Source of the DNA: Parcubacteria group bacterium Athens0714_16
Lineage (GTDB): Bacteria; Patescibacteriota; Minisyncoccia; Phycocordibacterales; 21-14-all-36-13
NCBI GenBank assembly: GCA_007376805.1
Contig: VMGX01000002.1
Span: 47,116 to 111,115, forward strand
DNA: 64,000 bases
Reading direction: 5' to 3'
Shown here: in pieces, positions 40,213-62,679 of the stretch
Layout: every line of letters begins with the position of its first letter
Position numbering within the stretch: position 1 is the first letter of the stretch
The notes under the pieces: model-generated
Told to the model about the DNA's origin: nothing
The model's input: the letters and a program-made list of their open reading frames with translations, nothing else
Database searches by the model: none
Translations under genes and position numbers: made by a program

Positions 40213-40255
40213 CTAAAAATCTGAGAGATTTTTAAGAAACATAAATGAACAAAAA

Positions 40256-43226: not shown

Positions 43227-43679
43227 TTATAATTCTTTCTTTATTTTTTCTGCAACCTTGTTTAATTCTTCTGTTGATTTTTGAGGTCCTAATTGTGTTG
43301 AAATGTATCCGATATATTTATCAAAGTAAATTTTATCTTCTGCCCACATTTCTTTAAATTTCTCATCCAATCCGTGGATTGGATATAATTTTATATGGAC
43401 ATGATTGACTCCAAGACCCTCCATAACAATTGCAACTCTTTTTACCACAAGTTTTTTTTCAAGTAGTTTTGCGACTTTTTTTGTAGCAACCATTAGATTC
43501 TTATAGGGATTGTCAGGCATATCTGTTGCATCGCTATCATAATGATCTTTTGTTAGTATCAAGGTCATTCCCTCTGTGTTCGGATTTATATCCAATATCG
43601 CAAGATGTTTCTTGTCTTCCCAAATTTTAACACAAGGAATATCACCTTTTATTATTTTACAAAATATACAATCTTTCAT
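43227..43679 (-). CDS. HIT family protein
   Basis: N-terminal CIFCKII and C-terminal GVNHVHIKLYP histidine-triad-like motif. Confidence 0.7.
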   Translation of the reverse strand: MKDCIFCKIIKGDIPCVKIWEDKKHLAILDINPNTEGMTLILTKDHYDSDATDMPDNPYKNLMVATKKVAKLLEKKLVVKRVAIVMEGLGVNHVHIKLYPIHGLDEKFKEMWAEDKIYFDKYIGYISTQLGPQKSTEELNKVAEKIKKEL

Positions 43680-43760
43680 TGTAGAATATTATATCAATTT
43701 TCTATTTAACAATGAAACAATTGAGCAATTGGACAATGAAACTGTGTTATAATCACGAAT

Positions 43761-45491
43761 ATGAAATATAAAATTTCTGAAAAGTTGGACGAAAAGACAG
43801 AAAAAGAGTTACAAAGTTACCCAGAATTAACTCGCATACTTTTATCGAATAGGGGAATAAAAACCGCGATTGACGCGGAAAGTTTTTTGAATTTAAATTA
43901 TGAAAATAATATACATGATCCATTTTTGATGAAAGATATGAGCAAGGCGGTTAAGAGAATTTTTTTTGCGATTAAAAATAAAGAAAAAATTGTGATTTTT
44001 AGTGATTATGATATGGACGGAATTCCCGGAGCGGTTGCATTACATGATTTTTTCAAAAAAATAGAATACAAAAATTTTATAAATTATATTCCACACAGAA
44101 ACAAAGAGGGGTATGGTTTAAACAAAGACGCAATAAAACAATTTGCAGAAGAAAAGACAAAATTACTTATAACCATTGATTGTGGGATAACAAATGTAAA
44201 AGAAGTTGATTCGGCCAATGAACTCGGTATTGATGTAATAGTTACAGACCACCACTTGCCAAACGGGCATGTTTTAAATGCATGTGCGGTTTTAAATCCA
44301 AAACAAAAAGATGACAAATATCCTTTTGAAAATCTTTGTGGTGCCGGTGTTATTTTTAAAATGATTCAGGCGCTAATAAAAAAGGGGAACGAAGAAAAAT
44401 TATTTGAAATCAAAGAAGGTTGGGAGAAATGGCTTCTCGATATGGTTGGCATGGCTACAATCGCGGATATGGTTCCTCTAATGGGTGAAAACCGGGCACT
44501 CGCTTATTATGGCTTGAAAGTATTGAGAAAATCTCCCAAGGCTGGCCTGGTGAAACTTCTTAAAAAAATTAAAGTTGACCAAGATAAATTAACAGAAGAT
44601 GACATTGGTTTTATGATAGGCCCGAGAATAAATGCAGCATCAAGAATGGATGTTCCCATGGAGGCATTTAAACTTTTAACAACAGATAATGAAGTGGAGG
44701 CGGATTTATTATCGACACACTTAGACAAAATAAATAATGAAAGAAAGGGTGTAGTTGCTTCAATAATTAAAGAGATAAAGAAAACTTATAAGCATCGAGA
44801 AGATAAACCAATAATTGTTATAGGTGACCCAAGGTGGAATCCCGGACTCGTTGGGCTTGCTTGCAATAGTTTGGTTGATGATTACAAAAAGCCCGTATTT
44901 TTGTGGGGCAGGGATGAAAATTCGGTTATAAAGGGCTCTTGCAGATCTGACGGAACGATTGATCTTGTTGAATTAATGTCGGAAATGAAAAATGAAGTTT
45001 TTATTGAATATGGCGGACATTCTTTGTCTGGTGGTTTTTCTGTTCATAATGAAAAAATACATTTTCTCGAAGAGGAATTAATAAAGGCGATTGAAACATT
45101 GAAGCTGAAAAATAATTTGTCTACCATGGCTGTGTCGGCAGGAGAAATTTTTTTGGATGGAGAATTATCTATTGATGATATAAATTTAAATACTTATTCG
45201 CAAATAGAAAAAATGTCTCCATTTGGAGAGGGGAATTCAAAACCACTTTTTATTTTTAACAAAATAAAAATAGACGAAGTTTTAGCTTTTGGAAAAAACA
45301 AAGAACATTTGAAATTAGAATTTAGAAATTCAAAAGGGAATAGAATAGAAGCCATTAGTTTTTTTTCATCAATGGAGGATTATGAGACAAACATAAAAAA
45401 AGATGAAAAAATAAATTTGGTTGCGAATATAGAAAAATCTGACTTTAGAAATTTTCCACAGCTGAGATTGAGAATTGTTGACATTTTTTAG
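43761..45491 (+). CDS. recJ: single-stranded-DNA-specific exonuclease RecJ
   Basis: DHH motifs (FSDYDMDGI, VTDHH) and the DHHA1 region. Confidence 0.9.
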   Translation: MKYKISEKLDEKTEKELQSYPELTRILLSNRGIKTAIDAESFLNLNYENNIHDPFLMKDMSKAVKRIFFAIKNKEKIVIFSDYDMDGIPGAVALHDFFKKIEYKNFINYIPHRNKEGYGLNKDAIKQFAEEKTKLLITIDCGITNVKEVDSANELGIDVIVTDHHLPNGHVLNACAVLNPKQKDDKYPFENLCGAGVIFKMIQALIKKGNEEKLFEIKEGWEKWLLDMVGMATIADMVPLMGENRALAYYGLKVLRKSPKAGLVKLLKKIKVDQDKLTEDDIGFMIGPRINAASRMDVPMEAFKLLTTDNEVEADLLSTHLDKINNERKGVVASIIKEIKKTYKHREDKPIIVIGDPRWNPGLVGLACNSLVDDYKKPVFLWGRDENSVIKGSCRSDGTIDLVELMSEMKNEVFIEYGGHSLSGGFSVHNEKIHFLEEELIKAIETLKLKNNLSTMAVSAGEIFLDGELSIDDINLNTYSQIEKMSPFGEGNSKPLFIFNKIKIDEVLAFGKNKEHLKLEFRNSKGNRIEAISFFSSMEDYETNIKKDEKINLVANIEKSDFRNFPQLRLRIVDIF

Positions 45492-45554
45492 TGTTGGTGG
45501 TATTATTAATTCGAAAATATGTTCATTTTATTCATTTTTTTTGCAGGAGGTTTT

Positions 45555-45815
45555 GTGAAGAAGTTTAAAAAAAGGATTTGTGGGGTTTGTGGAAATACTG
45601 TTTTATCTCATAATGATGGAACGGCGATTACGCACTCAAGAATCGATGGTGCGGGAGTTGTTTATCACGACGACACAACATGTGCAGGGGGTGGCAAGAA
45701 AACTCATCTACGCATGGCAAAATGGGTTTTTATTGCAACATCCATCATCGGCTCGGCTCTGATTGTTGGTGTGAAATACAACCACGACAAAGCAAAAGTT
45801 TTAAAAATAAGCTAA
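45555..45815 (+). CDS. hypothetical Cys-rich membrane-anchored protein
   Basis: GTG start 4 nt after AGGAGG, in frame with ORF 45519-45815. CGVCGN...TCAGGG motif and a C-terminal TM helix. Confidence 0.45.
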   Translation: MKKFKKRICGVCGNTVLSHNDGTAITHSRIDGAGVVYHDDTTCAGGGKKTHLRMAKWVFIATSIIGSALIVGVKYNHDKAKVLKIS

Positions 45816-45877
45816 GAACCTTGGAAGCGGATTAACATCCGCTTTTTATTTTGTTTGTGTAATGTTAAAATTTTCAA

Positions 45878-46573
45878 ATGCATAATAATATAATTATTTT
45901 TACAGATGGTTCAGCACTTGGAAACCCGGGTAAAGCAGGGTGGGGGGCGGTTATTATTTCAAACAAAAAAGAAATTTTGGAAATGGGGGGCTTTGAAAAG
46001 AAATCTACAAATAACAGAATGGAAATGACTGCAGTAATAGAGTCTATTAAACGTGTAAACGAAGAATTTCCCGATTCTCATATTACAATTTATACAGATT
46101 CAAGTTATGTTGTAAATGGAATAACAAAATGGATTCATGGCTGGATTTTAAAGGGATGGGTTGGAGTTAACAAACAACCTATTTTAAACAAGGATTTGTG
46201 GGAAGAACTTAAAGAAGTCAGTGGTTCTAATATTAAGTGGAGTTTATTGCCGGGGCACAGCGGAATATTTGGAAATGAGAAAGCCGATGAAATAGCGACA
46301 ACATTTGCGAGTGAAAATAGACCTATTTTATACAAAGGAACAATTGATAAATATAATAAAAATATTCTTGATCTCAGCACAAATGGTATAAGTAAGAGTA
46401 GTAAAAAAAATGTAATAGCATATTCATATTTAAGTATGGTTAATGGGAAAATAGAAAAACACAAAACATGGAAGGAATGTGAAAGCGTGGTGAAGGGGAA
46501 AAAAGATGTAAAGTTTAAAAAATCAATTAGTAGGGAGGATGAAGAAAAAATTATAGATGAGTGGACAAGTTAA
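45878..46573 (+). CDS. rnhA: ribonuclease HI with C-terminal extension
   Basis: IFTDGSALGNPGKAGWGAVI, NNRMEMTAVIESI and IYTDSSYVVNGI catalytic DEDD motifs. About 80 additional C-terminal residues. Confidence 0.85.
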   Translation: MHNNIIIFTDGSALGNPGKAGWGAVIISNKKEILEMGGFEKKSTNNRMEMTAVIESIKRVNEEFPDSHITIYTDSSYVVNGITKWIHGWILKGWVGVNKQPILNKDLWEELKEVSGSNIKWSLLPGHSGIFGNEKADEIATTFASENRPILYKGTIDKYNKNILDLSTNGISKSSKKNVIAYSYLSMVNGKIEKHKTWKECESVVKGKKDVKFKKSISREDEEKIIDEWTS

Positions 46574-46653
46574 ATTCAAAACCGATGAATGAGGTTTTGA
46601 ATCCACAATTTCATCTTTTTGTTCTTAAAATTTTTGAAACTGATTAGTATTTA

Positions 46654-48177
46654 ATGATTTATACTCAATTGAAAATTCATTCGGTTTTCTATGTTTTAAT
46701 AATAAGCTTTGTTTTAGGAGTGTTTTTCCGCTCCTTTTTTAATTTTGGTTTATTTTTTTTGTTGTTTTTAATTTTAATGTCCATTTTGGTTTCTTTGTTC
46801 TATATTTTGTTTTGCAAACAAAATATTAATATTCTTTTTGTTGCAATATTTATCTTGTTTTTTGGTTTTGGTGTATTTAGGTTTAGTTTATATGATGAAT
46901 ATAAGGGTAGTGAAATTACGGACTCATTAGTTGAGCAAAAAATTACAGCCGAAGGAATAATCACTGATGAACCAATAGAAAAAGAAAAAAGTATAAAATT
47001 TATAGTTAAATTAGACAAAGTTATTTCATTTGATGGAGAAACAAAAGTAAAAGACAGGGTTTTAATAATTACAGATCTTCCGTCTCTATTTAAATATGGT
47101 GACGAAGTTGTTTTAAGAGGCATTCTCATTAAACCAAAAAATTTTTCAAGTAACGATAGAGAATTTGATTATGTTTCCTATCTTTCTAAAGATAAAATAT
47201 TTTATCAAATGTTTCGTCCGGAAATAAAACTAAAATCAGAAGGTGGGGGTAATTATATAAAAGAAGTTTTATTTAGTGTAAAAAATTCTTTTTTAAAAAG
47301 TATTAAAAAAATAATTCCTGAACCACACGCATCTTTACTCGGTGGTTTGACAGTTGGTGCTCAGGAATCTTTGGGAGAGGAATTACAAAATAATTTTAGA
47401 AAAACAGGGATTGCGCACATAGTTGTTTTGTCTGGTTATAACGTGACAATTGTTTCCGAAGCCATAATGCGTGTTTTCGGTTTTCTCCCGATGGTTTTTA
47501 AATTTTCTTTAGGTGCCTTAGCAATAATATTTTTTGTTTTGATGACCGGAGCTTCTGCAACGGCCGTTAGAGCTGGGATAATGGCCGTTCTGGTTATTAT
47601 TGCTCGTGTTACGGGAAGAGAATACGATGCGCTTCGCGCACTTTTAATCGCTGGTGTTGTTATGATAATACAAAATCCTAAGATTTTGGCATTTGATTCT
47701 TCTTTCCAACTTTCTTTTATGGCGACCCTAGGACTATTGTATGTTTCACCACGAATTTACAAATATTTTAAATTTATAACTACAAAATTTCAATTTCGTG
47801 AGCTTGTTGTTTCGGCGATAGCGACACAGCTTTTTGTTTTGCCCCTGATTTTATATAAAATGGGGAACCTTTCCATTTTGGCTCTACCTGTAAATTTACT
47901 TATTCTCCCATTTATTCCGATAACGATGTTTTTCGGTTTTGTTTCTGGGGTTATTGGCTTTTTGGGTTCAGCAATAGCTTTTCCATTTTCTTTTATAACA
48001 TTTCTATTTTTAGATTATGAGTTAAAGATAGTGAATTTTTTTGCAAACATACCTTTTTCTTCGATCCAAATAAACAATTTTCCGGTAGTTTTTATGGTTT
48101 TAATATATATAATTTATGGAGTGATTTTATTTTTAATTAATAAAAATAAGAAAAATGTTCCAAAAATAAATTTATGA
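46654..48177 (+). CDS. comEC: ComEC/Rec2 competence channel protein (N-terminal and Competence-domain part only)
   Basis: 507 aa, polytopic. OB-like region followed by the ComEC-type TM core (GIAHIVVLSGYNVTIV). No metallo-beta-lactamase domain in this ORF. Confidence 0.8.
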   Translation: MIYTQLKIHSVFYVLIISFVLGVFFRSFFNFGLFFLLFLILMSILVSLFYILFCKQNINILFVAIFILFFGFGVFRFSLYDEYKGSEITDSLVEQKITAEGIITDEPIEKEKSIKFIVKLDKVISFDGETKVKDRVLIITDLPSLFKYGDEVVLRGILIKPKNFSSNDREFDYVSYLSKDKIFYQMFRPEIKLKSEGGGNYIKEVLFSVKNSFLKSIKKIIPEPHASLLGGLTVGAQESLGEELQNNFRKTGIAHIVVLSGYNVTIVSEAIMRVFGFLPMVFKFSLGALAIIFFVLMTGASATAVRAGIMAVLVIIARVTGREYDALRALLIAGVVMIIQNPKILAFDSSFQLSFMATLGLLYVSPRIYKYFKFITTKFQFRELVVSAIATQLFVLPLILYKMGNLSILALPVNLLILPFIPITMFFGFVSGVIGFLGSAIAFPFSFITFLFLDYELKIVNFFANIPFSSIQINNFPVVFMVLIYIIYGVILFLINKNKKNVPKINL

Positions 48178-48223
48178 TTGGTATCGACCTTTTTATGGAA
48201 TAATAATTTAATCACCAGCTACT

Positions 48224-48261
48224 AAACCATTCCAATATTCCTAGGAATATTGGAATGGTTT
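48224..48261. promoter_or_regulatory. perfect 38-bp palindrome, candidate operator / bidirectional terminator
   Basis: AAACCATTCCAATATTCCT|AGGAATATTGGAATGGTTT, 40 nt upstream of the HTH gene. A partial copy (GGTATTCCTAGGAACATTGGAATAGGTTT) lies at about 48555-48584, before the MBL gene. Confidence 0.6.
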
Positions 48262-48300
48262 ATGGTATAATTCATAATTATATTATTTTTAAAATTATTT

Positions 48301-48579
48301 ATGAAAAAAAGAAAAAACTATAAAGAATTAGAAAAAATTGTTAAGGGTTTTTCTAATCACAGAAGAATTGAAATAATGGAAATTCTGCATAAAAAACCTG
48401 GACTGTCGTTGTTTGAAATCGCAGAATATTTGGATGTAAATTTTAGAACGATTTCTGAACACACAAGGAGATTGGTTGTGGCTGGGTTGATTTTCAAAAG
48501 AGCAGATATAAATTTTGTGAGACACGAATTAACTAGGCGCGGGAAAGCCGTTCTGGTATTCCTAGGAACATTGGAATAG
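48301..48579 (+). CDS. ArsR/SmtB-like winged-helix transcriptional regulator
   Basis: 92 aa. HRRIEIMEILHKKPGLSLFEIAEYLDVNFRTISEHTRRL is an ArsR-type wHTH. Confidence 0.7.
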   Translation: MKKRKNYKELEKIVKGFSNHRRIEIMEILHKKPGLSLFEIAEYLDVNFRTISEHTRRLVVAGLIFKRADINFVRHELTRRGKAVLVFLGTLE

Positions 48580-48585
48580 GTTTCG

Positions 48586-49503
48586 ATGGTTTTTTATTTG
48601 TTTTTTGTTTTTCTCTTTTTTTTATTTTGTTTTATGAAAACATTAAAATCTATTCAAAAATATTTAAAATTTATTATTTTACTTTTTCTGACCCTCACCG
48701 TTCTCTTTATTTGGTCTGGGGTTTTTGCTCAGCAACAAGGCGATATTTTGAAGATTGCGTTTTTGGACGTTGGACAGGGTGATGCAATATTTATAGAAAC
48801 ACCAAGTGGCAACCAAGTTCTTATTGATGGTGGTCCCGACAAAAAAGTTTTGAGAGAATTATCAAAAATTATGCCTTTTTTTGATAGGACAATTGATGTT
48901 GTTATTGAAACACACCCAGATCAAGATCATATAGGTGGATTACCTGCGATCTTTGAAGGATATGAAATTTCTAAATTTATTGAATCGGGGGTGGTTTCTG
49001 ATACGGACACATATAATTTTTTAAGAGATTTAGTTAAAGAAGAAAAATCCGAACAAATTTTAGCGAGAAGAGGAATGATTTTAAATTTAGATAATGGTAT
49101 TTATTTAAAAATTTTATTTCCAGACAGAGATGTGTCTGGAATAGATACAAATGATGCGTCGGTTGTTGCTCAACTTGTTTATGGAAACACAAAATTTTTA
49201 TTTACAGGCGATTCGCCTCAAAAAATTGAAAATTATATAACCTCACTTAATAGCAAGGAATTAAAAAGTGATGTTTTAAAGGTTGGCCACCATGGTTCAA
49301 AAACCTCCTCGTCAAAATCTTTTTTGGGATTTATTTCTCCCGAATACGCGGTTATATCTGTTGGGGCAGATAATAAATATGGGCATCCAAACCAAGAGGT
49401 AATTGATTTGTTAAATGAATTCGATGTTGGAATTTTAAAAACTTCTGAAAACGGAACAATAATTTTTGAAACAGACGGAGAGGTTTTAAATTTAATCCAA
49501 TAA
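48586..49503 (+). CDS. membrane-anchored metallo-beta-lactamase fold hydrolase (ComEC C-terminal-domain-like)
   Basis: N-terminal TM. FLDVGQGDAIFIE, ETHPDQDHIGG and VGHHGS motifs match the ComEC lactamase_B domain. Confidence 0.8.
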   Translation: MVFYLFFVFLFFLFCFMKTLKSIQKYLKFIILLFLTLTVLFIWSGVFAQQQGDILKIAFLDVGQGDAIFIETPSGNQVLIDGGPDKKVLRELSKIMPFFDRTIDVVIETHPDQDHIGGLPAIFEGYEISKFIESGVVSDTDTYNFLRDLVKEEKSEQILARRGMILNLDNGIYLKILFPDRDVSGIDTNDASVVAQLVYGNTKFLFTGDSPQKIENYITSLNSKELKSDVLKVGHHGSKTSSSKSFLGFISPEYAVISVGADNKYGHPNQEVIDLLNEFDVGILKTSENGTIIFETDGEVLNLIQ

Positions 49504-49674
49504 CTTCTAAATTTATTTGTTATGTCAAAAATTATAATCTATTCTCTTATTCTTACGAATAAGAGAATAGATTATAGGTTTTTACAAAAATAAAAGCCGG
49601 ATTAAATCCGACTTTTATTTTTATAAAACACAAAAAACATTATAAATTAAAAAGCTCATTAAGAGCTTTTTAAT

Positions 49675-49917
49675 TTATATAACCCCAGCTTTCTTAAGAA
49701 CGGCGTAGGCGCCATGTTTTTGTATAGTTTTGATTGCCTTTGTTGAAAGTATTACATTTACTGTCTTATTTATTTCAGGAACAAAAACCCTTTTGTTTTT
49801 AAGGTTTGCTTTTCTTCTTTTTACTCCCACAGGATTAAACTGTGTAGCACGAGTTCTGTTGCTGTATCCACCAGCCATTTTTGAACTCTTACCATTTACT
49901 GCGCATTTTCTTGCCAT
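49675..49917 (-). CDS. rpmB: 50S ribosomal protein L28
   Basis: 80 aa. MARKCAVNGK...SNRTRATQ...RRKANL pattern is L28-like. Confidence 0.8.
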   Translation of the reverse strand: MARKCAVNGKSSKMAGGYSNRTRATQFNPVGVKRRKANLKNKRVFVPEINKTVNVILSTKAIKTIQKHGAYAVLKKAGVI

Positions 49918-50067
49918 ATTTTTCTTATTAAGTGTGATTATGTTATCATAATATCAAATTTATTCAAGTATTATGTCCCAGTAGCAAAATATTTTTCAAT
50001 ATTATAAGTTGCATTCAAAACACAGCGGATGAATTAAAATTTCTTTTAAATATTTTAAATTCTGATT

Positions 50068-50697
50068 TTGCTACGGGATAAACAAGGAATGGAAACAATT
50101 TTTTCAATAATAATATTAATTTTTTCTGTTGTCATACACGAGTTTTCTCATGGATATGCCGCAGATAAATTAGGCGACCCAACTGCTCGGTTGGCTGGTC
50201 GTCTGACCTTAAACCCATTTGCACACCTTTCTTTATTTGGTTCTTTCATTTTTCCTCTAATAACATATTCGCTCGGTGGTTTTATTTTTGGTTGGGCAAA
50301 ACCAGTTCCCTATAATCCATACAACATAAGACATAAATATGGAGATGCAATTGTTGCGGTCGCTGGCCCGGGCTCAAATTTTTTACTTGCAGTAATTTTT
50401 GGTGTTTTGATTCGTCTCAATGTCGCATATGGTCTTTTCCCGTCGCCATTTATTGATGTTTTTGCTCTGATTGTTGTTATAAATATAATTTTAGGAATTT
50501 TTAATCTGATCCCGATTCCACCATTGGATGGTTCAAAAATTCTTTTTAACTTTTTGCCGGTCAGATATTTATTTATAAAAGATTTTCTTGAAAAATATTG
50601 GCCAGTTTTCGCATTTATACTCGTTTTCTTTTTGTGGAAATTTATACTACCACTCGTTCATTTAATTTTTTCTCTCATAACAGGAATAGCCGTTTAA
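50068..50697 (+). CDS. M50 family (site-2 protease-like) zinc metalloprotease
   Basis: HEFSHGYAA (HExxH) and [14 protein letters not shown] (NxxPxxxLDG) motifs, polytopic. The start may be METIFS at 50089. Confidence 0.8.
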
Positions 50698-50791
50698 TAG
50701 GGAATTTTTCCAAAACCCTTGCTTTTTATTGTTAAAAATATTACATTATATGTCGTTCGGTGTATTAACCGAACGGTGTTTTTTATTAAAA

Positions 50792-51208
50792 ATGTCCACA
50801 ATAAATCAATTAATTAAGAGCGGAAGAAAAAAACAGGTTAAAAAGCCAAGGGCTGTGGCTCTTTTGCGTGGTTTTAATACTAAGAAAAATGCACCAGTAT
50901 TTTATCCGTCTCCCTTTAAAAGAGGTGTTTGTATAAAAGTAACGACAAAAACTCCTAAAAAACCAAACTCTGCTATAAGAAAGATTGCTAGGGTAAGATT
51001 AACAAACGGATTGGAAGTAACAGCATATATTCCGGGGATAGGACACACAATTCAGGAACACTCAGTCGTTTTGTTAAGATCTGGGAAAGTAAAAGATATC
51101 GGTGTTAGATACACGATTGTAAGAGGAAAATTAGACGCTTCCGGAGTTGATAAAAGAGAAAACGCAAGAAGTCGTTACGGAGTTAAAAAACCTAAGGTTA
51201 AAAAGTAG
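50792..51208 (+). CDS. rpsL: 30S ribosomal protein S12
   Basis: [14 protein letters not shown]...[18 protein letters not shown]. Start set at the conserved MSTINQL; the ORF is open from 50729. Confidence 0.95.
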
Positions 51209-51309
51209 AAAGCAACAAAACAACAAAACAACAAAACAACAAAGCAACAAAGCAACAAAGCAAGAAAACAAGAAAACAAAGCACAAAAAATATTTTATAA
51301 TTTATTAAT

Positions 51310-51780
51310 ATGAGAAGAGCAATTAAAAGAAGAGACCCTGTCTCACCAGACCGAATATATAATTCAACAAAAGTTGAGAAGTTTCTTGGTTATATAATGG
51401 AGAGTGGTAAAAAAGAAATAGCAATGAAAATTGTTTATGATGCTTTTGATTATATAAAGGAAAAAGAAAAAGGAGCAAATCCTCTTGATGTTTTTGAAAA
51501 TGCTATAAAAAATTCATCTCCACTTATGGAAGTTCGTTCAAGAAGAATTGGTGGTGCAAACTATCAGGTTCCTCGTGAAGTTAGACCAGAAAGAAGATTA
51601 TCTTTGTCTATGAGATGGATAATTGATGCAGCAAAATCAAAGAAAGGAGCTAAAATGTTTAAAAAATTAGGAGATGAAATAATTCTCGCAAGTAAGGGAG
51701 AGGGTGAGGCAGTAAAGAAAAGAGAAAATACCCACAAGATGGCGGAATCAAACAAGGCGTTCGCTCATTTTTCGTGGTAA
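51310..51780 (+). CDS. rpsG: 30S ribosomal protein S7
   Basis: 156 aa. EVRSRRIGGANYQVPREV and KAFAHFSW are S7 signatures. Confidence 0.95.
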   Translation: MRRAIKRRDPVSPDRIYNSTKVEKFLGYIMESGKKEIAMKIVYDAFDYIKEKEKGANPLDVFENAIKNSSPLMEVRSRRIGGANYQVPREVRPERRLSLSMRWIIDAAKSKKGAKMFKKLGDEIILASKGEGEAVKKRENTHKMAESNKAFAHFSW

Positions 51781-51858
51781 TTTATTGGTTTTATTTTATA
51801 AATTTATACTTTTAAGTTGTAGTTTTGACTTTTGAGTTTTAAGTTTTGAGTTAATTTT

Positions 51859-52755
51859 ATGCGTGATTACCCATTAGAAAAAGTTAGAAACATAGGAATT
51901 ATTGCACACATAGACGCGGGGAAAACAACAGTTTCCGAGCGCGTTCTTTTTTATACAGGAGTTTCTCACAAAATAGGTGAAGTCCACGAAGGAAAGGCGG
52001 TTATGGATTGGATGGAACAGGAAAGAGAAAGAGGAATTACCATTACATCCGCTGCAACGACTTGTTTTTGGACTCCAACATATCAAACAATGCAGATAAA
52101 CGCAGATAAAAAATCGCAGATTGACGCAGATGAAACAAAAAAAGAATTTGAACACAGAATAAATATTATAGATACACCAGGACACGTGGACTTTACAGTT
52201 GAGGTTGAGAGATCTCTGAAGGTTCTTGACGGTGGTGTTGTTGTTTTTGACGGAGTCGCAGGAGTTGAACCACAGTCAGAAACAGTTTGGAGACAGGCAG
52301 ATAAATATCATGTTCCAAGAATTTGTTTTATAAACAAACTCGATAGAACAGGAGGAAATTTTGAAAGGTCATACAAAACAATTTTAGATAGATTAACAAA
52401 AAATGCAGTTAGAATGCAGATACCGATCGGTGAAGAAGAAAAACACATGGGAGTTGTTGATCTTTTGAAAATGAAAGCATTTTATTTTGAAGGAGATTTA
52501 GGGAGCACAATAAGAGAAGCTGAAATCCCAGACGAATTAAAGGCTGATGCACAGAAATACAGAAATGAACTTGTAGAAAAAATTGTTGAGAACGACGAAG
52601 AAATGATGACCAAATATCTTGGCGGTGAAGAGATTGGAGTTGATATTTTGAAAAAACTTTTAAGAAAATCAGTAATTGCTGGGTTGGTTGTTCCTGTTTT
52701 TACTGGTTCCGCATTAAAAAATAAAGGAGTTCAACTTGGATGTTCCGCCAATTAA
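51859..52755 (+). CDS. fusA: elongation factor G, N-terminal (G domain) ORF
   Basis: [14 protein letters not shown] and NKLD GTPase motifs. Ends ...[14 protein letters not shown] after a frame break. Contains a 27-aa insertion before [11 protein letters not shown]. Confidence 0.85.
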
Positions 52756-54007
52756 AGGAATAGACCCAAACACTGACGGAGAAATAGAAAGAAAATCAGA
52801 TGATAACGAGCCGTTTGCTGCGCTTGCTTTTAAATTACAAACGGACCCATTCGTTGGTCAGTTAACATATTTTAGAGTTTATTCAGGAACACTTGAATCT
52901 GGTTCTTATGTGTACAATTCTACAACAGGAGAAAAAGAAAGAATCGGAAGAATTTTAAGAATGCATGCAAACCTAAGAGAAGATGTAAAAAAAGTTTATG
53001 CAGGAGAAATTGCAGCAGCTGTTGGTCTTAAAAACACAAGAACATCAGATACTCTTTGTGACGAAGTCCATCCAATAATTCTTGAAAGAATTGTGTTCCC
53101 AGAACCGGTTGTATCTTTGAGAATTGAACCAAAAACAAAAGCAGACCAAGAAAAAATGGGTATTGCACTTAAAAAACTTTCTGACGAAGATCCAACATTC
53201 AGAATTAAATCAGATCAAGAAACACTGGAGACAATTATTTCTGGTATGGGAGAATTACACCTCGATATTATTGTGGACAGAATGAAAAGAGAATTTAATG
53301 TTGAAGCAAATATAGGCAAACCACAGGTTGCATACAGAGAAACAATAACAGGCGAGGCAGAAGCAGAATATAAATACATAAGACAAACAGGTGGTCGCGG
53401 ACAATACGGTCACGTAAAAATTAGAGTCAAACCAATGCCGTTAGAAGAAGAAAAAAATAAAAAACTTGCAAGAAATATAAAGAGGTCTGAGGGACTTGAA
53501 TTTATAAATAATATTAAAGGGGGCGTTATTCCACAAGAATATATTCCAGCAGTTGAAAAAGGGGTTCGTGAAGCGATGGACAGAGGTATTCAGGCTGGTT
53601 ATAAAATTGTAAATGTGTCAGTGGATTTGTTTGACGGTTCATTCCACGACGTTGACTCTTCTGAAATTGCATTCAAAATTGCAGCATCACAAGCATTTCA
53701 AGATGCAACAAAAAGAGCAAAACCAGTTATTCTTGAGCCTGTTATGAAATTAGAAGTTGTTACACCAGATAAATTTATGGGAGACATAACAGGAAATCTT
53801 GCTTCAAAGAGAGGACAAATTGAAGGCTCTGAAGAAAGAATTGGTTTGAAAGTAATTCATGCGAAAGTTCCTCTTTCAGAAATGTTTGGATATACGACAT
53901 CATTACGTTCAATGACAGAAGGCCGTGCATCTTCAACAATGGAATTTGATCATTATGCGATTGTACCGGAGAATGTTGCTAAAGAAATTATAGAAGCGAG
54001 AAAGTAG
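52736..54007 (+). CDS. fusA: elongation factor G, domains II-V ORF
   Basis: (L)DVPPIKG...PFAALAFK...ISGMGELHL...[11 protein letters not shown]. In the +1 frame relative to the upstream ORF. TTG at 52736 lies 6 nt after AAGGAG. Confidence 0.85.
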
Positions 54008-54151
54008 AATCACTAAATCACCAAATCACCAAATCACCAAATCACTAAATCATAAAACCAAAAAAAATCAAAAAAACAAAAATAATAAGCTCGTTTGAAT
54101 AAAATTCAAACGAGCTTATTTTTTAATTCCCTTCCAAGCAGATTTTTATAA

Positions 54152-54406
54152 TCATTGGTTTTTAAGAAGTTCTCTCCTTTCCAGCGTCATTTCCAACAAT
54201 TCTTTTGTGTCAAACATTTTCGACATCTCGTCGGATAAAGGTTTCCCACCTACAAAAGAAACAATTTGTTCATTCGGATTTTCGGGGGCAATAATAAGTA
54301 AAGAACTCATCCCGCCGCTTTCCATTTCCAATCTCTCTAGCTCCTTAATTAGATTAATAATTGCTTCATTACATTTTTCATCGATATGAAATTTTGGCGA
54401 TGGCAT
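54152..54406 (-). CDS. hypothetical protein
   Basis: 84-aa ORF. AGGAGG RBS, private TTGACA promoter and a terminator. Confidence 0.5.
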   Translation of the reverse strand: MPSPKFHIDEKCNEAIINLIKELERLEMESGGMSSLLIIAPENPNEQIVSFVGGKPLSDEMSKMFDTKELLEMTLERRELLKNQ

Positions 54407-54532
54407 CTCTGCTCCTCCTATTTGTTATTGAAATATACTACTTATCTAAATTCAAATTACTCTTATAAAAAACTTTGTCAACGTAAAATAAAAAAATCGT
54501 TTGCCCTTATTACGGGGACAAACGATTTTTTG

Positions 54533-54982
54533 TTAATCTTCTAACTTGAAAATTTTTTCCACTTCATCTGTAAGTTTTGGTTTTAATTCTAGTATCCAAC
54601 TGATTCTTTCTGGGAAAGCTTTTATAACTTCCAAAGTTATGTGATCGGGGAGTTTTGGTATGATGAAATTAAAATGAATTCTTAGCGCAGTTTCATTAAT
54701 TACACCACTTTTTTCTACCAAAGTTTTTATAATTTCAACTGTTTCCCCCGGGAACTTTGTAACAAAAAAATATGAAGAATCAGGTTCTGCTTTCACAACT
54801 TCTAGAATCTTTTCAAGAGGTATAACTTTCAAAACACTAGGACGTTCTCCTGGACGGCAAAATTTTAATATTTTTATTATTAAATTAGGATGTTGTTCTG
54901 CCACTTTTGCGGCCCATCCGTCATATTGGTTAATCTTCATTACGATTTCAATGTTGTCTTCATTTACTTCTGAAATTTTCAT
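54533..54982 (-). CDS. hypothetical protein
   Basis: 149-aa ORF with a private promoter/5'UTR module homologous to that of 54152-54406. Confidence 0.5.
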   Translation of the reverse strand: MKISEVNEDNIEIVMKINQYDGWAAKVAEQHPNLIIKILKFCRPGERPSVLKVIPLEKILEVVKAEPDSSYFFVTKFPGETVEIIKTLVEKSGVINETALRIHFNFIIPKLPDHITLEVIKAFPERISWILELKPKLTDEVEKIFKLED

Positions 54983-55125
54983 TTAAAACCTCACTTCGTT
55001 TGTTATTTAAATGTACTACTTTCCTAAATTCAAAATACTCCCATTCAAAATTTTTGTCAATATAAAATAAAAACCACGTTCAAACGTTAAATTTGAGCGT
55101 GGTTGCTTAAATAAAGAAAAGATTT

Positions 55126-55833
55126 TTAAATTTTTTTTCTTAATAAAATATAATGATTTTCATCAAAATATTCCGGCATTATTGTTATAGAAGAACATTT
55201 GTTTATGACGTCACAAGATATCATAACGTTTTCGCAAGGAGACAAGGAGTATAATTCGTTCGCATTTTCTAGCTCTATCAAAATAGGAGACCTAAGCGGG
55301 TCAACACAAATTATTTTCCCCCAGATTCCACGAGATTTTAATGCCAAAGGATTAATTTGATTGATAAAACAATAAAAATATTCTGCACTTGCAAAAGAAT
55401 ATCCGTAAAACCTTACTTTATTCTTGAGAAATCCAAATTGGTTTTTTCCTTTTACATTCATCAAAAATAATTCAGATTCCTGTCTCTTTTGGAATTTTTT
55501 TCCAATTGTTTCAAGAAGTTTTTCTAATGGTTCAATATATTCTCCGTGCCACGATGATAGTGGAAAAGATGTTTCTGCCATTCTACGAATTGTCTTTATA
55601 TTTAAATCTTGTCCGTTGTATTTTGACAACGTTCCAATTTTAAAAATTTTAACATCCGTAAAATTTCTGATCATTTTGTTAAAAGATTCACCAAACTCTG
55701 TCTTTTTTTGAGAAATGTAGAGTATGTCTTGTGGTGTTATTCCATTCCATTTAATTTGGGAAACCATGGTTTGGATTAATTCGCCAACCGTGTCGGGTTG
55801 TATGGGGACTGTCTCATTTTTTAGATTTTCCAT
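55126..55833 (-). CDS. hypothetical protein
   Basis: 235-aa ORF. AGGAGG RBS. Private promoter TTGACAAAAATTTTGTTAGGAGTATTTTGA. Confidence 0.5.
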   Translation of the reverse strand: MENLKNETVPIQPDTVGELIQTMVSQIKWNGITPQDILYISQKKTEFGESFNKMIRNFTDVKIFKIGTLSKYNGQDLNIKTIRRMAETSFPLSSWHGEYIEPLEKLLETIGKKFQKRQESELFLMNVKGKNQFGFLKNKVRFYGYSFASAEYFYCFINQINPLALKSRGIWGKIICVDPLRSPILIELENANELYSLSPCENVMISCDVINKCSSITIMPEYFDENHYILLRKKI

Positions 55834-55965
55834 GAGCTGTTCCTCCTTTATTTTTTAAATAACGATGACACTTATTGTGTCTCTGGTTCTCAAAATACTC
55901 CTAACAAAATTTTTGTCAAATGAAAAAGCAATTTAGATTGTTTTTTCATCCATAATTTTTTAATT

Positions 55966-56117
55966 CACCACAGCCCCACTTTTTTATAACAAACCATAAA
56001 TATTATTTTTTAATTTCATAACTCTTTTTTAGTTTTGTAATACTTTATTTTTTCTAGCAAAGTGGAGCTGGATCCTCAAAAAATATAGTCGCTTCGCTCC
56101 TTATTTTTTGGGAAATG
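55966..56117 (-). repeat. CAGCCCCACTTTT inverted-repeat element (copy B)
   Basis: The reverse complement aligns along its full length with 13211-13362. Inverted-repeat arms at 55971-55983 and about 56058-56071. Confidence 0.75.
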
Positions 56118-56459
56118 AAAAACCCCCTAATTCAAAAGACAATCCGTTAAGCTTGGCGAATTTCCCGTCTATAGGGAATTCTTGATTGTCTTTGAATTAA
56201 GGGTCAAACCATACTCATGCGCAGAATATGATTTAATTGATTATGCTATAACACAATGGATCTGTTTCAGAAATTGTCTTCTGAACATAAAAACGATTGT
56301 GGGGTTCCTAGGTTCCACATCGTTCCCGCGCCGATGCCTTTTTCGCAGATCGATGTAACAACTACATCTATTTGTCATTATAAACACAGTAAGAAAAAAC
56401 ACAAGTTTAATGGCCTTTTTCTATCCACAGAATGTCCACTTTTTGGATATGTGAATTAT

Positions 56460-56487
56460 TTGACATTAAATTTGTTTCCTATATACT
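56460..56487 (+). promoter_or_regulatory. candidate 23S rRNA promoter
   Basis: TTGACA (56460-56465), 16-nt spacer, TATACT (56482-56487). The leader contains hairpins, including CCGCTT-ATTA-AAGCGG plus T7. Confidence 0.4.
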
Positions 56488-57296
56488 CTAACCTTGTGTT
56501 AAGAAATATGAACGAATACAAAAAATCACTAAAAAAGCGGAGGTAATAATCTTGTTTTTGAAGGATTATCGCCCGCTTATTAAAGCGGTTTTTTTATTAA
56601 AGAAATTGGCGGAATGACTGGACGAATGAACATTGAAAAATGAATATTAGTTAAGTTTAAAAGCAGAATCCAAGTGTCTTTTTCGTGGCACTGGATTTTA
56701 AAGTATTTTTCATCTAGCGGAATAGAAATATTCCATAGAAAATAAGTTTTATTAAGTCCCGCGTGATTTAATAAAAAAATTGTGGTTTATGTAGTTCCTA
56801 ACAGGAAATACATAAGGGCGTATGGTGGATGCCTTGACTCTAAGAGGCGATGAAGGACGTGGCATGGCTGCGATAAACTTCGGGGAGGTGCCTAGCAACC
56901 TTTGATCCGAAGGTTTCCGAATGGGGTAACCCATTGTGACAAACTCACAATACTGAATTTATTCAGTGCATACCTGGGGAAGTAAAACATTTCAGTACCC
57001 AGAGGAAAATAGAACAATAGTTATTCCCTTAGTAGCGGCGAGCGAAAAGGGAAAAGCCCAAACCGAACTCTTTTATTAGGGCTCGGGGTTGTAGGACGTT
57101 AATATCATATTTATATGAAAGAAGTTACAAATGTGTTAGATAGTTGAACAAGCTGGAAAGCTTGGCCCCAGAGGGTGATAGCCCCTTAAACGAAATTTTA
57201 CACACTTCTTTGTTAATGTTCCTGAGTATCTCAAGACACGAATGGCTTGAGAGAATCTGCCGGAACTAACCGGTAAGGCTAAATACTCTTAGAGAT

Positions 57297-57339
<43 letters not shown>

Positions 57340-58679
57340 GGAGAGGGGAGTGAAATAGACCTGAAACCATATGTCTACAAGGAGTCGGAGCAGAACTCTA
57401 CTGAGTTCTTTAAATATGTTTTTTAAAATTTATAATTTATGGATTTTAAAATTAGAGAATTGAGTAGAGTTTCTGCGACGGCGTGCCTATTGAAGAATGA
57501 GCCAACGAGTTTACATGTACTGCTTGACTAAGTCCCGAAAGGACGGAGTCTAAGGGAAACCGAGTGTTAAAAGCGCGTTCCGCTTTATTGCGGGTGTAGT
57601 ATATGTAAGACCCGAAGCCAGGTGAGCTACCCATGATCAGGGTGAACTTTGTCGAAAGACAAAGGGAGGCCCGAACCGTTTAGCCGTGCAAAACTATCGG
57701 ATGAATTGTGGGTAGGAGTGAAAAGCTAATCGAACTTGGTAATAGCTGGTTCTCTCCGAAATAGCTTTAGGGCTAGCGTTTAGTTTATCTTTTGGGGGTA
57801 GAGCACTGGATGGTCTGGATAGGAGGCAACTTCACTAGACCAATCAAACTCCGAATACCAGAAGCCACTACTAAACAGTCAGACTACGGGGGCTAAGCTC
57901 CGTCGGTCAAAAGGGAAACAGCCCAGATCTCAAGTTAAGGTCCCTAAATTTACATTAAGTGCAAATAAGGAGGTGGAATTTCTCCGACAGCGAGGAGGTT
58001 GGCTTAGAAGCAGCCATCCTTTAAAGAAAGCGTAACAGCTCACTCGTTAAGAGATTTTGCGCCACAAATAATCGGGGCTAAATGTGATACCGAAACTGAG
58101 GATGTCATCACTTTATTGTGATGGCGTGGTAGGAGAGCATTCCGTTCTACTGTGAAGCCAAAGGGGTGACCCATGGTGGAGTGTACGGAAGAGATAATGT
58201 TGGCACGAGTAACCACAATTCCACTAAGAAAGTGGAACGCCGAAAGATCAAGGTTTCCTTGGCAATGTAAATCATCCAAGGGTTAGTCGGTCCTAAGGTT
58301 ATGACGAAAGTCGGAGCCGATGGACACACGGTTAATATTCCGTGACTTTCATTTATTTCGATGGGGTGACGAAGTTTAGTATGTTTGGCGCATTATTGGA
58401 TTTGCGTCTACTTTGTGAGGAAGGTGCTTAGGCAAATCCGGGCACCTGACTTTAATGTCAATTCCAAGCGAGGCGGAGAACCTGAGATTCGTCAAAGGGA
58501 ATCAAACAAAGCAAGCTTCCAAGAAAAACCTCTAAGGTTAAATAAATGAAAACCGTACCGAAAACCGACACAGGTGATCAGGTCGAGAAGACTAAGGCGA
58601 ATGAGTGAGTGTTCCCCAAGGAACTCGGCAAAAAAGCAGCCGTAACTTTGGAATAAGGCTTTCCAGCTCCAATTTTGGG

Positions 58680-58950
58680 AGTAAAATTAAATTATGAATT
58701 ATGTTTATCTTATTCAAAATGATTTTGATGGAGAAATATATATTGGACAAACTTCTGATATAAAAAGAAGGTTGGCTGAACATAATAATAAATGTCAAAA
58801 AGTTTACCACTAAAAAACGGTAAGTGGATAATTATTTATCTTGAAATATTCAGAAATAAAAAAGATGCACAAGAAAGAGAAAATAAATTAAAACAACATG
58901 GTGGTGGTAAAAAAGAATTACTTAAGCGACTAAGATATAGTTTGCTTGAG
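58680..58950 (+). other. 271-nt insertion in the terminal loop of a helix-63-equivalent hairpin
   Basis: Closed by the 17-bp helix CCAGCTCCAATTTTGGG (58663-58679) with CCCAAAATTGGAGCTGG (58951-58967). Lacks the AUAUAGUC group I signature. Confidence 0.6.
58694..58935 (+). pseudogene. frameshifted GIY-YIG nuclease gene inside the 23S insertion
   Basis: Frame 1 reads MNYVYLIQNDFDGEIYIGQTSDIKRRLAEHNNK (GIY-YIG N-half, stop at 58813). The C-half KWIIIYLEIFRNKKDAQERENKLKQ continues in another frame from about 58792, with no stop until 59028 in rRNA sequence. The shift lies near an A-run. Confidence 0.65.
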
Positions 58951-59124
58951 CCCAAAATTGGAGCTGGACGCAGCGAAAGTACCCCTGGCGACTGTTTACC
59001 AAAAACACAGCTCCCTGCGAACTCGTAAGAGGATGTATAGGGGGTGACGCCTGACCAATGCCAGAAGGTTAAACATGAGGGGTCCAAGAAGTTTTACTTT
59101 TTGGGCTGGATTATGTAAGCCCTG

Positions 59125-59159
<35 letters not shown>

Positions 59160-59611
59160 TCTCGGTTTAATTTTTAAATTGAATCGAGAAAGACTAGGAC
59201 TGTTATAATAAAAAATTGGTAACAAAAGATTGCTGCCTATTTCACGTAAAGTGAAATGTCTATAAAATTTGACCATATGCTGGGAAACCCGCGATGTATC
59301 CTTAAGTACTCGTTTAATTTTTTAAACAGTAACAAACTTTAAGGTGATGCGGAAAATCAGCAGGAAAGTTTGAATTCTTTTTAATTAAATCTAGAATTCA
59401 AAATCCTCAGAGACTAAAAGTCAGACTAAGTTGTCTACAAAAACAATTTAGAAAATATAGTCCGAACTTTGTGGCGACACAGAGAGTGAGACAGAAATGT
59501 TCTTACCTTGTATCTGCGTTCATCTGCGCCTGCCCCGTAGCTAGAGCATAGCTCTATGGTACTGGGGTATAATTTGCGTAGATCTGCGTTTGTTACAAAG
59601 TAACAAAGTTG
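59160..59611 (+). mobile_element. group I intron (ORF-less) at the E. coli 1917-equivalent position
   Basis: Interrupts CCTAAGGT|...G|AGCGTAATTCC. The 5' exon ends in U and the intron ends in G. Contains AGACTAAAAGTC and GAAAATATAGTCC core-like motifs. Confidence 0.75.
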
Positions 59612-60105
59612 AGCGTAATTCCTTGTGTGGTAAGTTCACACGTGCACGAATGGCGTAACGACTGGGGGACTGTCTCGGGGAACAGCTCGGTGAAAATACA
59701 GTATCGGTGAAGATGCCGATTACCTGCAACGGGACGAAAAGACCCCGGGAGCTTTACTGCAACTTCGTATTGAATATACGTTTCATCTGCGTAGCATAGA
59801 TGGGAGACTTTGAAGTTTGTTTTTCGGAACAGATGGAGTCAACAGTGAAATACCATTCTTATGTGATGTATATTCTAACCTCAACGGCAAAAACGGTGAG
59901 GGACATTGCGTGGTGGGCAGTTTTAGTGGGGCGCTATCCTCCTAAAGAGTAACGGAGGAGTTTATCAAGGTCAGCTAGGCGCGAATGGAAACCGTGCCGA
60001 TAGTGTAATGGCACAAGCTGGCTTAACTGCGAGACGGACATGTCGAGCAGATGCGAAAGCAGAACATAATGAACCGACGATTCGAATTAGACACGGTCGG
60101 AGATT

Positions 60106-60138
<33 letters not shown>

Positions 60139-60181
60139 GGTTCCGCCTAAGCGTTCAGAGCGACGGCGGAGTTCGGCACCT

Positions 60182-60503
60182 TAAAGTAAATTTACAAATT
60201 TAAATCGGGGTGCGACGTGAGAGATTGCGTAGCCTGGAATCAAAAACATATTTGTAGGAGAATATGTTCAGATTAAAAATATTGGCTTATAACGGTGGAC
60301 TCCATCATAAAAATTTTTATTATGGACAATACCGTGGGAAGTCTTCGTTTTCAAAAACGAATGACCCCGTAGAGACTGATGCGAAAGCAGAGAGTATTTC
60401 ATAAACGAAATGCTAATACGCCAACTCCTAACCACAATAAATTAATTGTGGAAGGAAGAAGATATAGTCCGATCCTTCTGGTAACAGAAGAAAAATGACA
60501 TTG
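60182..60503 (+). mobile_element. group I intron (ORF-less) at the E. coli ~2500-equivalent position
   Basis: Interrupts GGCACCT|...G|CGATGTCGG. Contains GAAGATATAGTCC. Shares blocks with the next intron. Confidence 0.75.
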
Positions 60504-60659
60504 CGATGTCGGCTCGACTTATCCTGGGACTGGAGAAGGCCCCAAGGGTTTGGCTGTTCGCCAATTAAAAAGTCACGTGAGCTGGGTTCAGACCGTCGTG
60601 AGACAGGTTGGTCTCCTATCTGTTGCAGGCGTCGATTTTTGAGGAGATTTGCTTCTAGT

Positions 60660-61486
60660 AAGTAATTGCTACTTCTCATAGTAATATGGGATGACAATTT
60701 GGCTAATAACGGTGAAATCTTCATAGGTTATCTGGCAGTGGAAAAACAATTAGCGCGGTCCGTTAATTGTGATAAAATTACTTGAGGACCAGATAATTTT
60801 TAAGACAATACCGTGGGAAGTCGATCTAAAATTAATTTAGCATATATCGCTGGTTTTCTTGATGGAGATGGAAGTTTAATGCTCCAAATAAAGAAAAGAA
60901 GTGATAACAAAAGAGGGATTCGTTTTATGGCGACAATATGTTTCTATCAAGATAGTCGTCACGATGAACCTTTATATTGGATAAGAAAAGAATTAAACAT
61001 AGGGTATGTTTCAAAAAGAAAAGATGGAATTACTGAATTGAGGATCAATGGATTTGAGAGAATTGAAGAAATTCTTAAAAATCTTATTCCTTATATAAAA
61101 TTCAAAAAGATACAAGCAAAAGCATTATATGATTGTTGTAAAATTTTACAAAAACCAATGAATGCTTTAAAAGAAAGTGATTTCAGAAAACTTGTAGATT
61201 TGATTCTTACAATTCAAAAAGAAAACTATGTTTCAAAGAAAAAGAAAGACAAAGAAGAATTGCTAAAACTATTAGATTTGACCCCGTAACGACTTGTTTT
61301 GTTCAATCTAATTTGAACAAACGGACTTGTATAATTTCGGAAGGTTCTGAAATATTTTAGGACAGATTTATACTTGTAATACGCCGACACCCTAATCAAC
61401 ACAAGGTTGGTGGGTGAAGATATAGTCTACACTCCTAGAAATAGGGGATAAATTCTAAATCAATTAAAAAGATTAAGAAATATGTG
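60660..61486 (+). mobile_element. group I intron with LAGLIDADG ORF in the sarcin-ricin loop region
   Basis: Interrupts CTAGT|...G|ACGAGAGGACC. Contains GAAGATATAGTCT. The ORF is inserted between the blocks CAATACCGTGGGAAGTC and TGACCCCGTA. Confidence 0.75.
60813..61289 (+). CDS. single-motif LAGLIDADG homing endonuclease (I-CreI-like)
   Basis: 158 aa. LAYIAGFLDGDGSLMLQIKKR motif and overall I-CreI-like layout. GTG start within a conserved intron block. Confidence 0.85.
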   Translation: MGSRSKINLAYIAGFLDGDGSLMLQIKKRSDNKRGIRFMATICFYQDSRHDEPLYWIRKELNIGYVSKRKDGITELRINGFERIEEILKNLIPYIKFKKIQAKALYDCCKILQKPMNALKESDFRKLVDLILTIQKENYVSKKKKDKEELLKLLDLTP

Positions 61487-61565
61487 ACGAGAGGACCGAA
61501 GTGAACTGACCTCTGGTGTACCTGCTGTCGTGCCAACGGCACCGCAGGGTAGCTATGTCGGGAAA

Positions 61566-61598
<33 letters not shown>

Positions 61599-61874
61599 AA
61601 CTCCAAGATAAGAAATCATTTAAGATTCCTGAGAGATGATCAGGTTGATAGGCCTTAGGTGTAAGCACAGCAATGTGTTCAGCCGAGAGGTACTAATTTA
61701 ATCAAAATTACTTCCTGTTGGGAGCTATGTGAGCTACAATATTTTATTTTTGTGGATTCTTTATTCCGCTAGGTGAAAAATACTTTATCTGTTTTTATAT
61801 ACTTAACTATTATTTTTTTTCTGAACTAAATTTTTTGAATTTAGTGCTTTTTTGTTCTTTTTAAATATTTAATT

Positions 61875-61983
61875 GGCGGTATAGTTTAATCTGCTCTGGG
61901 CAGACTGACCAGTGGTTTTTGGTTAGGGTTAAAACGTCGCCCTTTTAAGGCGAAGAGTATTGGTTCGAGTCCGATTATCGTCA
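61875..61983 (+). tRNA. tRNA-Lys (anticodon UUU) with a 36-nt D-loop insertion
   Basis: Acceptor GGCGGTA/TATCGTC, D-stem GTTT/AAAC, anticodon arm TCGCC-CTTTTAA-GGCGA, T-arm ATTGG-TTCGAGT-CCGAT. The insert at 61891-61926 lies between AAT and GGTTA of the D-loop. Confidence 0.6.
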
Positions 61984-61989
61984 CAAAAG

Positions 61990-62064
61990 GCGGGGGTAGT
62001 TCAGTTGGTTAGAACATTCGTTTCGCAAAACGAAAGGTCGGTGGTTCGAGTCCACCCCTCTGCT
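61990..62064 (+). tRNA. tRNA-Ala-like (G3:U70; CGC-containing 8-nt anticodon loop)
   Basis: Acceptor GCGGGGG/CCTCTGC with G3:U70, D-arm GTTC-AGTTGGTTA-GAAC, anticodon stem TTCGT/ACGAA enclosing TTCGCAAA (8 nt), variable AGGTC, T-arm GGTGG-TTCGAGT-CCACC. Confidence 0.6.
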
Positions 62065-62205
62065 CGAAGTTTTTTTTGAGTTCTTTTATATGGGCCGTTG
62101 AATTAACAGACCGAGGTCTTTAGTGACTGGCGTAACAGCGCGGGCTCAACGGAACGGGAGAGCTTGGTTGGGGTAATCGGTAAATCACCCACGGTCTATC
62201 ATTTT

Positions 62206-62679
62206 TTAGATAAGTTTTTTGTTTGCTCGCACAGTTTGTGCGAGCTTTTTGTTTGTTTTTTCAAAACTCTCGATGTTTCCTTTAATAATTTTAAAAAGTG
62301 GATGTATTTTTATCTTTTCAATCTTTTTTAATTCAGAATATTTTATTTTGTCTCTATTTTTTAGTTTATTTTTTAAATGTTTAAATTCATATTCTAACTG
62401 TCCACTTGTTACATTAATACAAATTTTTTTGTAATTTTTTTCAATTTTATTTTTATCAAATTTATATTTTCTTTCAGATGCTTCTTTTTCGATGTGATGG
62501 AGATATGTATTTATTGAATTCAACGAATTTTTTGTATTTTTAAAACGCAAAAGCTGTGGATGATTTTTATAACCCACAGTTTTTCCTTCAAGAACTTTTT
62601 TTGCAAGAAGGCCTTCTCGCCAAACAGCTAAAAGTCCCATCCGGTCTAAATATTTTGGATGTATACTCCATAAACGCAT
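62206..62679 (-). CDS. pyrimidine dimer DNA glycosylase (T4 endonuclease V / DenV-like family)
   Basis: MRLWSIHPKYLDRMGLLAVWREGLLAKKVLEGKTVGYKNHPQLLRF is the family signature. Start set at MRLW; the ORF is open to 62733. Confidence 0.75.
   Translation of the reverse strand: MRLWSIHPKYLDRMGLLAVWREGLLAKKVLEGKTVGYKNHPQLLRFKNTKNSLNSINTYLHHIEKEASERKYKFDKNKIEKNYKKICINVTSGQLEYEFKHLKNKLKNRDKIKYSELKKIEKIKIHPLFKIIKGNIESFEKTNKKLAQTVRANKKLI

Follow-up and report, generated by a model that had tools for sequence, protein, structure and literature searches.

A fusA gene split in two in a deposited Parcubacteria genome is very probably a scaffolding error

Introduction

The gene for elongation factor G (EF-G), fusA, is deposited as two overlapping open reading frames in Parcubacteria group bacterium Athens0714_16, and this split very probably reflects faulty local assembly (scaffolding) of the MAG rather than a property of the organism, which almost certainly carries one ordinary 728-codon fusA closing the order rpsL-rpsG-fusA. 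The stretch of DNA analysed, referred to here as the window, spans 64 kb of a 112,003-bp contig, and an earlier reading of its letters alone had favoured a split gene with coupled expression of both parts, naming an assembly collapse among the alternatives. From this original prediction the assembly-collapse alternative stands, supported by an intact contig of the same strain that carries the 38 nt absent from the window and by a sister assembly in which a contig stops at the junction, whereas the leading interpretation of a split and coupled gene is not supported.

The workflow of the source study, to which the MAG is linked by its name, used idba_ud with default parameters (PMC5581439), and local assembly error correction is nowhere mentioned in the source-study papers (PMC5581439, PMC6730927). 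The runs numbered SRR88634xx are part of the Ohio groundwater BioProject PRJNA512237 (PMC6730927); since the same strain is present in SRR8863436 and SRR8863440, both runs of that project, the re-assemblies described below probably draw on the source dataset of the MAG. Local errors are prominent in IDBA-UD assemblies, and a single CPR genome of 1.13 Mb was found to contain 13 of them (Chen et al. 2020, Genome Res 30:315, PMC7111523).

Organization of the fusA locus

In the window, fusA takes its canonical place in the str operon, after rpsL and rpsG. The first gene of the operon, rpsL, encodes ribosomal protein S12 (50729..51208, + strand), and the identical gene in contig L004 carries the Pfam domain Ribosom_S12_S23; its true start probably lies at about 50750, the 152-aa call at 4441-4899 of L004 corresponding to window positions 50750-51208. 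Directly upstream of fusA lies rpsG, encoding ribosomal protein S7 (51310..51780, + strand), of which an identical 156-aa product with the Pfam domain Ribosomal_S7 is found in L004 and L005.

The 5' fragment of fusA, ORF1 (51859..52755, + strand; 298 aa), covers the G domain as far as SALKNKGVQ, the G5 motif, and then runs through six out-of-frame codons (LGCSAN) to a stop codon. The 3' fragment, ORF2 (52736..54007, + strand; 423 aa), lies in the +1 frame, begins (M/L)DVPPIKG and comprises domains II-V. The two ORFs correspond exactly to the database entries TSD03236.1 and TSD03237.1, both annotated 'elongation factor G' in this organism. Pfam places GTP_EFTU on ORF1 and domains II, III, IV and C on ORF2, so that the five-domain architecture of EF-G is present but spread over two proteins, and no single uninterrupted fusA frame exists in the window. 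The TTG at 52736 that serves as the 'start' of ORF2 is, in the intact gene, the Leu codon preceding DVPPIKG, and the Shine-Dalgarno-like AAGGAG (52724..52729, + strand) consists of the K-G-V codons of EF-G, with the same bases in all six intact alleles examined. As the original prediction had described, fusA occupies two ORFs that meet near a domain boundary and overlap by 20 nt, with AAGGAG lying 6 nt ahead of TTG 52736; every coordinate was confirmed in the sequence, as a deterministic fact of the letters rather than a statistical one.

Within ORF1, the variable loop after TPTY (~52084-52155) is longer than in relatives, where it is shorter by 8-16 residues, and it contains an internal near-repeat. 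This loop appears hypervariable and hard to assemble, with a 100-N gap falling at the same loop in GCA_038058035.1.

The uninterrupted gene in the same strain and its relatives

Contigs of the same strain were retrieved through exact matches to neighbouring proteins, both from MEGAHIT assemblies (ENA ERZ27284374 and ERZ27284377) and from Logan assemblies of SRR8863436 and SRR8863440. All of them match the window at 100% identity throughout their overlaps with it. One contig of ERZ27284377, k119_609968 (L007), covers window positions 51786-52736 and 52736-56895 (951 nt and 4160 nt) without any mismatch, and between these two matches it carries 38 extra nucleotides, AGTTTTGGATGGTGTTGTAGATTATTTACCATCTCCAT, which restore an uninterrupted EF-G of 728 aa. 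In this independent assembly of the population the defect does not recur. The outcome that the original prediction had itself named as speaking against it, a missing ~35-38 nt whose return would give a continuous gene, is thus what the same strain displays, at exactly 38 nt. Two Logan contigs (L008 from SRR8863440 and L009 from SRR8863436) both stop at window position 53275 inside ORF2, where a variant between strains or a branch of the graph is suggested.

A conceptual fusion of ORF1 and ORF2 was compared with a protein database, and all 120 best homologues proved to be single proteins, 119 of them full-length (711-727 aa) and the remaining one a 633-aa partial sequence cut at an N gap. The named homologues among these 120 belong to Patescibacteria, Paceibacterota or Parcubacteria, and the closest are 89-95% identical. 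The original prediction had proposed a comparison with orthologs from sister genomes; all close relatives aligned keep the segment. Additionally, scans of GTDB representatives and JGI metagenomes for the flank pattern matched only a 91%-identical Hainich relative, in which the gene is intact, and the intact 728-aa allele aligns over its whole length with solved EF-G structures, at E values of about 1e-264 to 1e-270.

These comparisons weigh upon the proposal of an evolved split, in which a G-domain fragment and domains II-V would be translated as separate polypeptides, coupled through AAGGAG and TTG within the overlap, and would assemble non-covalently. On paper the arrangement is competent for translation, given the position of AAGGAG ahead of TTG and the overlap with the stop codon of ORF1, and the break does fall near a domain boundary. 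However, the split is shared neither by any relative nor by the same strain in an independent assembly, and the 13 conserved residues that follow G5 are lost rather than partitioned between the two parts. In each of the six intact alleles AAGGAG and TTGGAT are ancestral K-G-V and L-D codons, merely brought together by the loss of 38 nt, so nothing has evolved for coupling, and zero substitutions relative to the intact allele over ~5 kb leave no time for adaptation. An evolved split is accordingly very improbable, and the coupled expression of two polypeptides put forward in the original prediction finds no support. It is just as hard to credit that one sample is dominated by a real deletion of 38 nt, with cells living on a two-polypeptide EF-G whose first part, a G domain, would lack the helix after G5 and whose second part, domains II-V, would be made from TTG 52736 and meet the first on the ribosome. 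If a two-polypeptide EF-G of this kind were true, it would be the first naturally split translocase; a literature search met with no natural split of EF-G in the 12 best-ranked of 76 papers.

Some bacteria carry two EF-G genes, and the broken gene could be imagined as a decaying paralog, a pseudogene with a functional copy elsewhere in the genome; the window represents only 64 kb, and a second fusA could sit outside it. Nevertheless, the broken gene occupies the canonical rpsL-rpsG-fusA position, and the window holds no second EF-G, its 715-aa ORF at 6716-8863 being PNPase. Only one lesion is found in fusA, with no other decay on either half, and apart from it the sequence equals that of the intact allele found at this locus. 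Synonymous changes far exceed non-synonymous ones on both halves: relative to the 91%-identical L001, the synonymous to non-synonymous codon differences amount to 91:9 in ORF2 and to 28:7 and 19:1 in the two parts of ORF1. With a single lesion and no relaxed selection, the pseudogene alternative of the original prediction lost its footing, and a decaying paralog can be given scarcely any credence.

Other fragmented fusA genes in the clade

A clade-wide tendency to split fusA was also considered and rejected, as the other fragmented calls come from N gaps or long-read indels and none is biological. In GCA_038058035.1 (L002), fusA is called as proteins of 75 and 633 aa on either side of its 100-N gap. 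On the 686-kb contig_4896 of ERZ1286166, from a Hainich relative (L016), the gene at 2624-4762 is distributed over three frames and four ORFs; these frame changes are consistent with uncorrected long-read indels, and other genes on that contig are probably affected likewise. In ERZ28564302 (ANAN16-1 scaffold_50275; L017), fusA is called as 311 and 449 aa and is interrupted at 3589-3790, first by 10 Ns and then by an unrelated stretch of ~190 nt. This interruption lies between PIKGI and EIERKADD, only ~40 nt downstream of the counterpart of the window junction, and is probably a chimeric scaffold join.

The lost segment

Compared with two relatives of ~91% nucleotide identity, the window is short of exactly 38 nt and is collinear elsewhere. 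The loss is located at the junction 52736..52737, with a positional ambiguity of 1 nt. As 38 nt amount to 12 2/3 codons, their loss accounts for both the lost residues and the change of frame. The codons removed are those for VLDGVVDYLPSP(L), and 13 conserved codons are affected. The absence of ~12 conserved residues together with a frame change, which the original prediction had noticed, was therefore a sound observation, the closest relatives all retaining the segment. The sequence across the deletion junction is AAAGGAGTTCAACTTGGATGTTCCGCC, and the intact gene reads GGAGTTCAACTAGTTTTGGATGGTG across the left junction and CCATCTCCATTGGATGTTCCGCC across the right one (each a 27-30-mer).

The lost residues come directly after the G5 motif, and their conservation extends as far as solved EF-G structures, with the segment reading KNKGVPLMLDAVIDYLPAPS in 6n0i. 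In the AlphaFold model of the relative P0001 they may form a helix at 276-286, although the mean pLDDT of this model is 53 and falls below 50 in the region of the lost segment.

The frame relationship at the junction also bears on a programmed +1 ribosomal frameshift at CTT-G, which would yield a single EF-G without the 13 residues. At the prfB (RF2) +1 frameshift site, the spacing between the Shine-Dalgarno element and CUU is 3 nt. The fusA site bears a superficial likeness to it, with an SD-like element upstream of a CUU codon and a downstream ORF in the +1 frame. Yet the codon after CTT is GGA, neither a slow codon nor a stop, the spacing from AAGGAG is 5 nt against the 3 nt of prfB, and re-pairing from CUU to UUG would be poor. 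Furthermore, the site is not conserved, relatives being in frame, and the product of such a frameshift would still be without the conserved segment. The frameshift suggested in the original prediction thus finds no foothold in the sequence and is extremely improbable. Even taken together, coupled expression of two polypeptides, a prfB-like +1 frameshift and a decaying paralog remain improbable.

Two routes by which the 38 nt might have been removed were tried and rejected. Replication slippage could act on TTGGATG, which occurs twice, 33 nt apart, but would produce an in-frame loss of 33 nt and not the observed junction, at which there is only 1 nt of microhomology. Hairpin-mediated skipping would depend on a 6-bp stem whose folding energy, -3.5 to -4.2 kcal/mol, is not significant (z-scores -0.7 to -1.6).

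A contig boundary at the junction

The sister assembly ERZ27284374 represents the region as two contigs that end where the window is defective. Contig A (k119_442394; 55,100 bp, reverse-complemented) corresponds to window 1..52736, with 100% identity verified for 1-4048 and 46310-52736; its terminal base is window position 52736, the left edge of the gap (...GTTCAACT), and at its other end it runs 2,364 nt outside the window, beyond the start of the latter. Contig B (k119_276408; 12,092 bp) corresponds, minus its first 33-34 nt, to window 52736..64000, with 100% identity verified for 52736-60982. It opens with TTGGATGGTGTTGTAG..., 4 nt further along the intact sequence than the end of contig A, and its first 33 nt are 'missing' sequence, after which it is identical to the window. 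The window is thus contig A joined to contig B without the first 34 nt of the latter, and the 4 unassembled nucleotides and the 34 dropped ones add up to 38. A contig end falling exactly at the lesion is very unlikely by chance, which argues that the contig end and the lesion are causally linked. The truncated products of contigs A and B gave no exact matches in the contig index, an index that also misses ORF1 and ORF2 themselves.

Contig ends at a lesion could also arise from a very recent 38-nt deletion allele segregating beside the intact one, with IDBA-UD following the deletion path; such a fusA would be null or defective, and transient or carried on relic DNA. Contig A stops at the last base common to the deletion and intact sequences, which is the de Bruijn branch expected if both were in the reads, and flanks 100% identical to the intact allele are what a very young mutation would leave. 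However, contig B begins 33 nt upstream of the point at which a simple bubble would reconverge, and a plain two-allele bubble therefore fails to explain both ends. The deletion junction offers no more than its single nucleotide of microhomology, the TTGGATG repeat predicts a different, in-frame loss and the hairpin is not significant. The deletion allele is, moreover, on record only in one IDBA-UD entry. Given that EF-G is essential, this lesion is not to be expected in an abundant organism, and no frameshift in an essential gene present once should rise to a frequency that dominates an assembly. A real and recent deletion allele is, on balance, unlikely.

The favoured reading is a scaffolding error. 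The short-read assembly graph breaks within fusA, leaving one piece that ends ...GTTCAACT and a next piece that opens TTGGATGGTG... 4 nt further on, and both assemblers would break at this spot. The idba_ud scaffolder would then have joined the pieces by paired-end links, presumably with a slightly negative gap estimate. In IDBA path assembly, a negative estimate of the distance d between two contigs causes the second to be entered only after its first |d| bases. The join would have been emitted without Ns, losing the 4 unassembled bases and the first 34 of the downstream piece, and an error of 38 nt plausibly lies within insert-size noise. With the codons for VLDGVVDYLPSP(L) gone and the frame shifted, gene callers would report two 'elongation factor G' proteins. 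We infer that the junction of GTTCAACT with TGGATGTTCC is without read support.

RNA genes downstream of fusA

The 23S rRNA gene further along the window (56802-60656, + strand) measures 3855 nt, compared with 2925 nt for the Rfam model. A group I intron match at 59214-59484 within it covers ~270 nt, which leaves roughly 650 nt of further insertion(s) unexplained. In 54000-64000, neither a 16S nor a 5S rRNA gene was found above Rfam thresholds.

A tRNA at 61990-62065 (+ strand; Rfam 58.8 bits) has a G3:U70 acceptor pair, which is Ala-like, and an 8-nt anticodon loop, TTCGCAAA, in which ARAGORN places an anticodon of four bases, 'cgca'. Either the tRNA is genuine and unusual, or a further small assembly indel may lie in the AAAA run. 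Just upstream, at 61920-61975, lies a partial tRNA match of 37.4 bits to model positions 8-63.

Significance and comparison with known systems

The biological significance of the split is little, and its value is that of a data-quality flag. Two truncated EF-G proteins, TSD03236.1 and TSD03237.1, sit in NCBI nr owing to an uncurated scaffold join, and as fusA is a common phylogenetic and completeness marker, fragments of this kind can distort CPR marker counts, trees and pseudogene statistics. Broken essential genes in MAGs can be vetted quickly by looking for the same strain in independent re-assemblies and for contigs that end at the lesion.

With canonical str-operon EF-G, the gene shares the five domains, the G1-G5 motifs and the order rpsL-rpsG-fusA. 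It differs only in that the deposited sequence is interrupted, whereas the 728-aa allele of the same strain is normal apart from a longer loop after TPTY.

In cyanobacteria, rpoC1 and rpoC2 represent a conserved natural split of the RNA polymerase beta' subunit, and the deposited fusA resembles them in that two adjacent ORFs cover one ancestral multidomain protein and break near a domain boundary. Genuine splits such as rpoC1/rpoC2, however, recur throughout a clade, divide the full set of residues among the parts and possess their own translation signals, whereas the fusA split is confined to one assembly, has 13 residues deleted and relies on incidental signals. The site differs from prfB in having no in-frame stop or rare codon and the wrong spacing, and its frame change results from a 38-nt loss that is absent in relatives.

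There is also a likeness to the scaffold errors described for IDBA-UD (PMC7111523), with which the split shares an uncurated idba_ud scaffold, a small change at a place where independent assemblies break, and a fragmented, incorrect coding gene that is passed on, here into NCBI nr. The error types described there include unsupported consensus, Ns inserted despite an overlap and wrong repeat numbers (PMC7111523); the fusA junction is the reverse of the second type, 38 nt having been swallowed with no Ns left in their place.
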